This document shows positions 40,827-43,050 of a stretch of 64,000 bases of DNA, in pieces (the stretch's first letter is position 1; the number at the start of each line of letters is the position of its first letter). The DNA is from Chloroflexota bacterium. Its GTDB lineage: Bacteria > Chloroflexota > UBA11872 > VXNJ01. A program made the position numbers and the translations under genes. A model generated the notes under the pieces. The model was not told where the DNA came from. It was given only the letters and a program-made list of their open reading frames with translations, and made no database searches. The DNA lies in contig OZ253449.1 of the NCBI GenBank assembly GCA_965261345.1, positions 1 to 64,000 of the forward strand. Reading direction: 5' to 3'.

Positions 40827-41470
40827 TCCCGCGGACAGTATTCCAGTTCGTACAGGTCGCGTCCCGCTACCTGCTCGGTCGGCAGGCTGGTTACGACGAA
40901 GCGGGCGTTGGGCCGCGGCGGCCGGGGCGCGCCGTCCCGGCCGGTATGCCCGGGCAGGTACTCGGCCTTGCCCACCACCCGTCGGGTCCTGGACCAGGTC
41001 CCGGCAAGGGTCTGGTGGGTAAAGCCGCGGAAGCGCCGCGAGGGCTCCCCGCTTGCAAGGCAGCGCCGCCGCGAGCGCTCGAGCGGGCGGGCGATCTTTT
41101 TCTCCAGGCGCGGGTTGCGCGCCAGGCCGAAGAGGTAGTCGATCCCCTCCCGTTCGCACCAGGTCATGATCGGATCGCGGCCAAAGCCCGAGTCGCCGCG
41201 CAATACGATCTGCGTTTCGGGCCAGGCGGAGCGGATCTTCTCTACCAGCGGCGCGATCTCGGACACCGCATCCGACCCCGGGGCGCTATCGGAGGGGCGC
41301 AGGCGGCAAAGCAGCAGATGCTCGCCGCAAAACACGTACAGCGGTAGATAGCAATAGGAGTCGTAATACCCGTGGAAGAACCGTCCTTCTTGCTTGCCGT
41401 GCAGCTTCACGTCGGTGGCGTCCACGTCCAGGACGATGCGCGCCGGGGGAGCGGGATGAGATTCCTATAC

Positions 41471-42825
41471 CTTGTATGTTCCAAATGGGAAGTCCCGGGT
41501 GCGGTAGGGCGCCTGTACCTTGGTCCATTGAGACCGTTTTAAAGCACGCTCGCCGCACCCGGATCTCCCGGCGCATAGACCCCGAACAATTGCTCGGTGG
41601 GCTCTAGACCCCGTATTCGCAAGGAAGGGCGTAGCGTCGGGAGTAACTATAGGGAGTTTTACATATGTGCGAGGACGTATATGTAGGCGTCGACGTTGCC
41701 AAAAACACCGTCGATATCGCCCTCGGGCCCCAGGGCGAGGTCTTTACCCTGCCCAACTCTGCGGCCGGGTTCGGGGCGTTGATCAAGCGCCTCGAGAACT
41801 ATCTGGTGGCGCTGGTGGTCGCAGAGGCCACTGGCGGCTACGAGGAGCAGCTGGCCGACGCTCTCCGGGACGCCGGCTATAAGGTGGCGGTGGTAAATCC
41901 GCGCCAGATGCGCGACTTTGCCCGGGCGCTTGGGATCCTGGCCAAAACCGACCGGATCGATGCCCGGGTGATCGCCCGCTACGCCGAGGCGGTAAGGCCC
42001 CCGGCAAGGGAGCGCAAGTCGCCCGCCGAGCGCGAACTGGCGGGACTGGTTGCCCGCCGCGGCCAGCTCATGGACCATCTCACCGCCGAGAAAAACCGGC
42101 TGGGGAGGCGGGTAGTTCCGCGTGTACGTGCCGACATCAGGCGCGCCATTGCCGGACTGGGGCGCCGCATCGCCACCCTTGACCGCGATATCGGCAAGCT
42201 GATTAAGGCCGACTCCGATCTTGCCACCCGCAGCGCGCTGCTGACCTCGGTGCCCGGCGCCGGCCCGCAGCTGGCGGCAACCGCGATCGCCTACCTGCCC
42301 GAGCTTGGAACGGTGGACGAGAAGCAGATCGCAGCCCTGGTAGGGGTTGCGCCCCTGAACCGCGACAGCGGCGCGTATAGTGGCCGGCGAACGACCTGGG
42401 GCGGACGCTCAAGGGTCAGGTCGGCGCTTTACATGGCGGCCCTGTCAGCCTCGCGCCACAACCCGGTGATCAAGGCTTTTTACGACCGGTTGGTGGAGAG
42501 CGGGAAACCCAAAAAAGTGGCGCTGACGGCTTGCATGAGAAAGCTGCTGGTGATCCTGAACGCGATGCTGAGGAACGGCGAGTATTGGCGCGAGGAGTCC
42601 GCCTCGGGCTGAACGCCGGGCAGGTCCGATCGCTCTTGCGGGCAAGGTCCCTGGCGAAGCCATGCCCGGGATCGGGCTATTGCGGCGATTACGCATCCGG
42701 TTATCGCCTGTCGATCGGGCTGCGGTCACTATGAACCGCGGTCGGGGCGCTGGATCTATCCTCCCCTTTCTCCTGGACCCCTCTGACCCCACCTCTGCCG
42801 GAATTGACAATCAAGACAATTGCTT
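41471..42825 (+). mobile_element. IS110-family element A, copy 3
   Basis: CTT core at both ends. Confidence 0.92.
41665..42612 (+). CDS. IS110 recombinase (A3)
   Basis: 315 aa; near-identical to A1 and A2. Confidence 0.95.
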
Positions 42826-42829
42826 TTTA

Positions 42830-43050
42830 AAGACCTTTATCCGCCCGGGAGACACGGGCATGCGCGATGCCTTTCCCGGCGCGGACAAAGTCAGGTCAAC
42901 CGGTCGGGAGCGGCCATGTGCTTCCAGCGCTTCAGAGTGCCTTTCCTGGACCTGCGCCCCGATCGGTCTGGCCGCGATTGCAAAGCCCTGTGGAGAGTCC
43001 GCGCTTCGAGCAGCCAGTATAGGAACCGGCAGGCATCGCCCAAGACCTGT
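42830..43050 (+). ncRNA. putative bridge RNA of IS110-B
   Basis: 5' hairpin; target loop ATGTGCTTCC (42916-42925) and TTCCTGGA (42943-42950); donor loop GAGAGTCC (42993-43000) and GTATAGGA (43017-43024). Confidence 0.75.

Follow-up and report, generated by a model that had tools for sequence, protein, structure and literature searches.

The best described relatives of the elements treated here are IS621 and other members of the IS110 group of insertion sequences. As described by Durrant et al. 2024 (PMC11208160) and Hiraizumi et al. 2024 (PMC11208158), these elements have a recombinase with DEDD and Tnp_20 domains, and the left end, ahead of the gene for it, encodes a bridge RNA. The RNA has two internal loops with left and right guides, the left guide having the sense of the top strand and the right guide that of its reverse complement. 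A short core is duplicated at the two junctions, and a -35 box near the right terminus makes a promoter possible across the junction of the excised circle. In the IS1111 group, according to PMC11208160, the bridge RNA is in the right end. Here we describe a locus in a 64,000-nt stretch, the window, of contig OZ253449.1 of a Chloroflexota bacterium (GCA_965261345.1, source genome of 2.39 Mb); coordinates are positions in this window. It is highly probable, in our view, that the locus consists of three RNA-guided mobile elements nested in one IS1380-family transposase gene: an IS110 element, D, guided there by its bridge RNA, a second IS110 element, B, inserted later in D, and then a group II intron.

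The stretch extending from 41456 to 43024 holds a 315-amino-acid IS110-family gene (41665-42612) with about 200 nt before it and about 410 nt after it, and is a chimera of two IS110 elements, B and the left end of D. Element B (41473..42822, plus strand, 1350 bp) comprises a left end with its own putative bridge RNA (41473-41664), the 315-residue recombinase open reading frame (ORF; 41665-42612, plus strand) and a right end (42613-42822) with an outward -35 box, TTGACA, at 42804-09. The first five nucleotides of D, TATAC (41466..41470, plus strand), are severed from the rest by B. The remainder of the D left end, containing the D bridge RNA, runs from 42825 to 43098 (plus strand), followed by a 412-residue IS110-family recombinase gene (43099..44337, plus strand) and the right end (44338..44534, plus strand), with a -35-like TTGACA at 44515-20 and the terminus ...TTGACAAATCGTAGAGAGT at 44533. 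Both recombinases score above cutoff with PF01548 and PF02371, the N-terminal DEDD RuvC-like and C-terminal Tnp_20 domains (127.7 and 44.5 bits for D), and with NF033542, "IS110 family RNA-guided transposase" (231 bits for B and 183.6 for D; cutoff 140). By these matches B and D can be classed as IS110-family recombinases, and the predicted bridge RNAs in their left ends, 5′ of the recombinase genes, place both elements in the IS110 group.

An earlier sequence-only reading of the window had drawn the borders differently, implying that 41466-43024 is one IS1111-like element, bounded by subterminal inverted repeats TTCCTATA...TATAGGAA and with a bridge RNA in its right end. The inverted repeat is present, the right end is where the IS1111 group carries its bridge RNA (PMC11208160), and five B copies are followed by D-type left-end sequence. 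The behavior of the copies speaks against a single element, as follows. The genome carries many copies of the first 1.36 kb, that is, of B, which are 94-99.6% identical, and all lose their likeness to the window at 42826. Beyond this point the copies differ, having a module about 70-85% like 42827-43098 (an estimate by eye over about 270 nt), a D-like gene almost directly, or unrelated sequence; B copies that are 99.6% alike thus carry modules with only that likeness, or none (c20696, c14038 and c875271). Whenever the module is present with its downstream DNA, the next gene is a second IS110-family gene of about 400 codons, in the window the D gene, and the D-like genes behind near-identical B copies are only about 65% alike in DNA. 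Because the module diverges in step with the D gene and not with B, this supposed right end of B is assigned to D.

Other genomes and samples show the module contiguous with D-type left termini where B is absent. Four genomes of the same genus have D-type elements without B, reading through an unbroken left end, CC-T[A/G]TACCTTT..., the module and the gene to ...TTGACAAATNGTAGAGAGT and CC; D-like copies have a common right terminus, followed by CC and a flank that matches the guides. A profile search covered 80 loci of D relatives, with 50-57% amino acid identity, from other phyla, Alphaproteobacteria, Longimicrobiales, Acidobacteriota and others. At 79 of these loci the D-type module was located just 5′ of the gene and in its orientation, and none of the 80 had a B-like gene in that orientation ahead of the D-type gene. 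In contigs from public runs X5 and X10, B (41463/4-42826) assembles as a separate repeat contig, and D-type left ends pass straight from ...TATAC into 42823/4 with B absent. The position of the module in the left end of D fits the rule for the IS110 group given in PMC11208160. The proposed element end at 43024 falls just past the right donor guide, GTATAGG (43017-23), at a place where the B copies have already diverged; the left donor guide fits the D right end at 44525-33 and not 43024; and the "inverted repeat" is the pairing of the right donor guide with the D left terminus. The IS1111 pattern is a long right end and 7-17-bp subterminal inverted repeats of one element, and 42825-43024 is not part of B. 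A single IS1111-like element is accordingly extremely improbable.

With the module assigned to D, its guides can be compared with the D termini. The donor-binding loop (42971-43042) has a left donor guide, GTGGAGAGTCC (42990-43000), that matches the D right terminus with the core, GTAGAGAGT+CC (44525-33), at 10 of 11 positions, 1.5 kb downstream; for the right donor guide the counterpart is CC+TATAC at 41464-70 (7/7). The donor guides had been said to match the ends of B exactly; the fit of the right guide is real, but TATAC is the left end of D, and the left guide finds nothing at the right end then proposed. Between subfamilies the left terminus and the right donor guide change together, from TATAC and GTATAGG to TGTAC and GTACAGG, and the left-guide 9-mer is present exactly at the right terminus in most surveyed loci. 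The core is CC rather than the TCC first proposed. In the window, CC is found on the left and a single C, the sole base left of the right copy (44534), precedes the intron, and relatives show the right end followed by CC.

The target-binding loop (42900-42966) contains the two target-guide segments that the sequence-only reading had picked out, ATGTGCTTCC (42916-25) and TTCCTGGA (42943-50), on either side of an inner hairpin; we draw the right target guide as TTTCCTGGA (42942-50). From the sequences, the guide code of D appears to be a left target guide that has the sense of the top strand and comprises about 8 nt plus CC, a right target guide of 6-7 nt plus GG as the reverse complement, and a CC core. 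Forms of the target sequence are ATGAGATTCCAGGAAG, ATGTGCTTCCAGGAAA and the perfect ATGTGCTTCCAGGAA. The left half of the target, ATGAGATT with the core CC at 41464-65, occupies 41456-41465, at the edge of an IS1380-family transposase gene fragment, IS1380-2 (40763..41465, minus strand), that lacks the N-terminal third and stops exactly at the D junction. This left flank, ATGAGATTCC, had rightly been identified as the E-S-H of IS1380-2, with 8/10 to the guide: in the IS1380 frame the reverse strand reads ESH-PAPPAR-IVLDVD, E-S-H being followed by PAPPARIVLDVD, and the D insertion site lies just upstream of the first catalytic Asp motif.

An empty version of the site is found in the same genome. 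The segment 36940-41465 is duplicated at 1054351-1058876 with 99.8% identity, and the identity ends exactly at 41465. The paralogue reads on from ...ATGAGATTCC into AGGAAGACTTCG, encoding an uninterrupted IS1380-type protein with ...VFLESHPAPPARIVLDVD. Its empty site, ATGAGATTCC followed by AGGAAG, matches the guide-spelled 15-mer at 13 of 15 positions (left guide 8/10, right guide 8/8), and only seven sites in the genome, counting both strands, are within two mismatches of that 15-mer. Since the right flank was invisible to the sequence-only reading, the 13/15 match is an independent confirmation of the target. Thus the bridge RNA target loop spells a site inside an IS1380 gene, as had been claimed, with a match beyond chance, but the RNA does not belong to B and the perfect 15-mer was not found. 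The own genome has no site within one mismatch of ATGTGCTTCCAGGAA; in 57 genomes of the order, the predicted target gave three one-mismatch hits against four for a reversed control, which is the chance level. A metagenome scan with a 19-mer around the left target guide returned 25 contigs, none with module homology near the hit and all attributable to chance, and hence no second copy of this guide variant.

The IS1380-2 junction might instead be a by-product of rearrangement, and its likeness to the guides a coincidence. This explanation could cite the absence from the window of the right half of IS1380-2, the left-guide match of only 8/10, and the lack of a perfect target in the genome and the 57 related ones. 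It leaves without a reason that the paralogue identity ends exactly at the D core and that the unseen right flank matches the right target guide at 8/8. Any one position has a probability of about 7 in 4.8 million of lying within two mismatches of the target, and true insertions in the family survey typically score 14-15/17. We attach a very low probability to coincidence, and retain insertion of D guided by its target loop.

The survey of flanks among homologues, a check that the sequence-only reading had suggested, was run for the D family and identifies the proposed positions as programmable target guides. Of 89 D-type loci, 82 had a loop that could be parsed, and termini were placed from the donor guides, giving 62 distinct insertions with both flanks and 38 guide sets. 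Many of these loci have poly-C guides in C runs; 33 such insertions were left out, leaving 29, and identical small register shifts were granted to real and control pairs. Matches of at least 14/17 between an insertion and its own guides were seen for 24 of the 29, as compared with 0 of 772 permuted pairs. For all 62 insertions the counts are 39 and, among permuted pairs, 71 of 3450.

Variation within the family follows the same pattern. A D variant in run X5 has changed guides (AAGATCTTCC / TGGTGGGGA), and its flanks have changed to match, with TCTTCC at the left junction and CCCCACCC at the right. A D copy in run X10 shows no difference at the listed guide positions, and its left flank, GCTTCC, is the last six bases of the left target guide. 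D-type ends in contigs of other samples adjoin GCTTCC on the left and CCAGGAAGA on the right. Contigs of run X20 have a D-type right end and then CCAGGAAGAAAG; X20 is the only RNA library with a share, a small one and of contigs only, which says nothing on transcription. Genes at the flanks were scanned for 16 D-family insertions: 15 of 20 ORFs had no Pfam hit, and the other five comprise two of IS1380 type (both flanks of locus L116, see below), one of IS110 type, one GNAT and one MOSC.

The folding of the D module is supported by covariation. The structure was drawn by hand on an alignment of 36 diverse sequences, with the module located by nhmmer, and has 31 base pairs, of which 93.3% are paired across the alignment; sliding the partners lowers this to 30-47%. 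Compensatory changes occur in 20 of the 31 pairs, and none of 500 shuffles reaches the observed values. One short helix (97-99/148-150) is weak, at 74% paired. A 5′ hairpin (about 42838-42895) precedes the target loop and the donor loop, each closed by a stem and holding an inner hairpin, with the guide segments on opposite sides of the internal loop. On this evidence the D module can be read as a bridge RNA of two stem-closed internal loops. An RNAalifold consensus on seven sequences mis-paired the donor loop and was replaced by the 36-sequence structure. Folded as a single sequence, the D module alone is unremarkable (z = -1.96), and Rfam has no family matching the D bridge RNA at gathering score or at E up to 1.

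Element B lies 7 bp inside the D left end, between TATAC-CT and CT-TTTTAAAG, and is surrounded by a duplicated CT core (41471-72 and 42823-24), although the overlap may be C, CT or CTT. The B 5′ region is predicted by a single-sequence fold, on which its bridge-RNA status rests, to form two stem and internal-loop modules (z = -2.79), the guide-bearing fold extending over 41480-41664. In it we recognize a complete guide set distinct from that of D. The left donor guide, AACAATTGCT/ACAATTGCT (41585-94), equals the B right terminus plus core exactly (ACAATTG+CT), where a paralogue has ACGATTG. The left target guide, CCTGTACCT (41512-20), matches D-type left junctions, CCTGTAC+CT, at 9/9 in four copies and at 8/9 in the window; the right target guide is GTTTTAAAG (41536-44). 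Five of eight forward-strand B left junctions, and five of nine B left ends in total, read CC-T[G/A]TAC, which is the D-type left end. Guides and flanks also covary among relatives of B: own-genome paralogues pair AACCCCGCT / ACCCCCG-CT with the terminus ACGATTG, G010 pairs ..TTCCCCT with CTTCATT, and G098 has TTGACCT with CTGACTT and another with CTATTAG. By sequence, B appears to be an autonomous IS110-group element nested in D, whose target guides (CCTGTAC-CT / TTAAAA) would spell the conserved terminus of D-family left ends.

A composite of B and D, moving as a unit with two recombinases on the one bridge RNA in its middle, would also put B immediately upstream of a D-like gene, as is seen at four loci in this genome, and would make sense of the TACCTT that the B insertion preserves at the D left junction. 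A unit should be copied whole, and the D partners are about 65% alike where the B copies are about 99% alike, indicating repeated independent insertions of B. B is found without D and D without B, B has its own guide set and its own CT core, and no identical B+D units with D-type flanks were seen at several sites in this genome. We regard the composite as very unlikely, and keep to B as an independent element inserted in D.

Several observations weigh against the scheme of guided insertions. For D, the left target guide fits the actual left flank at 8/10 only, and the right flank in the window is the intron rather than IS1380, so that the insertion is read from the paralogue and not from its own locus. 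In the survey, five of the 29 insertions have one poorly fitting flank, the left in L020 and L102 and the right in L089, L077 and L022, L020 being the closest relative of D; the right flank of L022 is a group II intron. The surveyed kin are not independent, the 29 insertions representing about 18 guide sets, and the guide identity of the X10 copy covers the listed positions, with 90 difference rows beyond them. For B, the right target guide matches the D-type right flank partially, at 3-5 of 7 positions after the core, the right donor guide is weak, CAAG only, and four B left ends (three forward, one reverse) occupy another repeated site, to which their own guides do not correspond.

This other site reads ..GTCCC-CT-TCATTGG (GTCCCCT-CTTCATTGG) and is occupied by the B copies at 14039, 875272, 115701 and 137891(-)/142519(-) of the source genome. 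It fits the guides of a 91%-identical B variant in G010 (L156; left target guide ..TTCCCCT, right target guide giving CTTCATT), which suggests that guides are replaced by recombination between copies, or that guidance can act in trans. In genome G047 (L034 / L174), the insertion site of a poly-C-targeting D-type element appears to be the right end, rich in C, of a B-like element, with a B-type terminus motif about 46 nt past the D right end; if so, the D and B families insert into each other. D-family insertions also adjoin divergent IS110-family genes at L139 (1379-2275, minus strand) and in the upstream regions of L141, L144 and L147. Two further places in the source genome are truncated remnants of B/D nests: a D-like gene at 108958-110130 without a left end and its first 16 or so codons, and, at 159107-160544, a B copy and after it a D-type module that lacks its D gene. 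Over the B bridge-RNA region, the minus strand of 41486-41648 has a weak Rfam match to sX15 (RF02234) at full model length (E = 0.004; 32.5 bits, the gathering score being 55); an IS110 left end may be the origin of this Xanthomonadaceae small RNA.

The gene receiving D is identified by its profile matches. IS1380-2, a 234-residue fragment, scores 190 bits with PF13701 (cutoff 34.7; profile 144-331 of 435) and 169.9 bits with NF033539 (profile 123-331 of 419), below the cutoff of 180 because the gene is a fragment; a full IS1380 copy at 46655-48007 scores 298 bits. The perfect 15-mer would encode F-L-E-A-H. A third copy has the LFLEAH before IVLDLD that the sequence-only reading had noticed (codons 32497-32511), and its DNA agrees with the 15-mer at only 11/15. 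A stop follows IVLDLDAT directly in this frame (32497-32565), and the copy may be a broken gene. At locus L116, in an unrelated proteobacterial metagenome-assembled genome, a distant relative of D cleanly separates the two parts (1939-2244 and 4237-5136) of another IS1380-family gene on the minus strand; the break falls between Pfam profile positions 334 and 337, and the guides match the two flanks at 15/17. The proposal that D is aimed at a conserved IS1380 motif is only partly supported, as this genome has one IS1380 insertion by D, at a 13/15 site; the flanks seen in runs X10 and X20, and the case of L116, speak for it. The duplicated segment 36940-41465, of about 4.5 kb, carries a large serine recombinase gene (38760-40826) besides the IS1380 gene, and has, in addition to its 99.8% copy at 1054351-1058876, an inverted 98.7% copy inside the window at 33092-36540.

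On the right side of D, the group II intron (44535..46460, plus strand; maturase/reverse transcriptase ORF 44957-46384) follows the D right end after one C. It scores 162 bits with Rfam RF02005 and 344 bits with TIGR04416, and its 5′ border, GAACAGCC, is common to nine copies. The expected right half of IS1380-2 (AGGAAGAC...) is nowhere else in the genome and not behind the intron, and the locus must therefore have been rearranged on its right side. Other intron copies in the source genome are at 110171, 1585797, 137800(-), 123673, 115657(-), 875232(-), 271216(-) and 821234(-), with one more at L022 (genome G098). Two copies in the own genome and one in G098 directly follow the ...GTAGAGAGTC of D-type right ends, four follow a repeated ...ATGGCGAAGCGAAAGTACTCGCCCGAACAGATCA, and two, on the minus strand, interrupt genes for B-like recombinases (268251-269285/271219 and 818346-819301/821237).

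The events at the locus may be reconstructed as follows. The target loop of D, through ATGTGCTTCC and TTTCCTGGA, would have directed D into ATGAGATT-CC-AGGAAG of IS1380-2, its donor loop (GTGGAGAGTCC and GTATAGG) reading D's own right and left termini around CC. B would later have inserted 7 bp inside the D left end, and the intron after the first core base at the D right end, the original right flank then being lost by rearrangement. By analogy with IS621, D would excise as a circle joining ...GAGAGT-CC-TATAC.... TTGACA stands 13 nt from the right terminus in both B and D, and the B insertion keeps the hexamer TACCTT at the D left junction. In the D circle, TTGACA would face TACCTT 17 nt downstream and could drive the bridge RNA, which would pair its donor loop with the circle junction and its target loop with ATGNGNTT-CC-AGGAA, the recombinase exchanging strands at CC. 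B would have the same geometry, TTGACA, 13 nt, CT and then TATGTT, again 17 nt downstream in the circle. The sequences themselves show the borders, the match of guides to flanks, the covariation and the empty site; we infer the order of events, the expression of the RNAs and an IS621-like catalysis of recombination, in part by this analogy.

It is tempting to go further, although we think the following more doubtful than probable. B might be a hyperparasite specialized on the D family, with a bridge RNA directed against the conserved D donor terminus, which is also the -10 box of the circle-junction promoter. Its insertion would keep a TACCTT from which the bridge RNA and gene of B are now read; the intron would home to the other terminus of D. 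D-lineage elements would have been programmed repeatedly against IS1380 genes, with the window and L116 as two independent cases at different positions, and RNA-guided elements would use their guides mainly against one another, a conflict among insertion sequences in several layers.

D differs from IS621 in several respects. It represents a distinct, larger (412-residue) lineage with an extra 5′ hairpin, and has a target code of about 8 nt plus CC and 6-7 nt plus GG. The core of IS621 is CT; that of D is CC. The natural targets of D are poly-C runs or, here, an IS1380 gene, instead of REP elements.

Nesting among mobile elements has described parallels. IS4321 and IS5075 in the ends of Tn21 resemble B in D left ends, and D in an IS1380 gene, in that a conserved terminus of another mobile element is the target of an IS110-family element. 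Those elements belong to the IS1111 group, with the guide RNA in the right end, whereas here both elements belong to the IS110 group, and B has entered another IS110 element at the donor terminus of the latter. Hu et al. (bioRxiv 10.64898/2026.08.14.744561) describe similar recurrent insertion into occupied IS110 loci, with boundaries beside resident donor ends and half-matches to guides. There the inner boundaries match the resident's own donor guides; here the target guides of the incoming B spell the resident terminus (9/9 on the left side at four of five sites). A literature search by title or abstract found no account of an IS1380 gene as the target of an IS110 bridge RNA, nor of an IS110 element nested in the left end of another, though supplementary target tables, such as that of IS110 targets in PMC11208160, may list such cases. 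The mechanism is the known bridge-RNA mechanism, and B and D are new members of the IS110 group. What is less ordinary is that the guides of one IS110 element spell the donor terminus of another IS110 family, and that the nesting is three layers deep.

With an empty site preserved elsewhere in its own genome, this natural locus lets every one of the four bridge RNA guides be checked. It gives a guide code with a CC core and target guides of about 8+2 and 6-7+2 nt; the code applies to a large IS110 lineage, spread across phyla, that could be mined as a programmable recombinase. It also shows that nested IS110 elements can mislead the annotation of borders and of guide-RNA ownership. For the biology of the family, an IS110 element can target the donor end of another IS110 element, and programmable guides are suggested to land mobile elements in conserved parts of others, which would be safe havens for the host.

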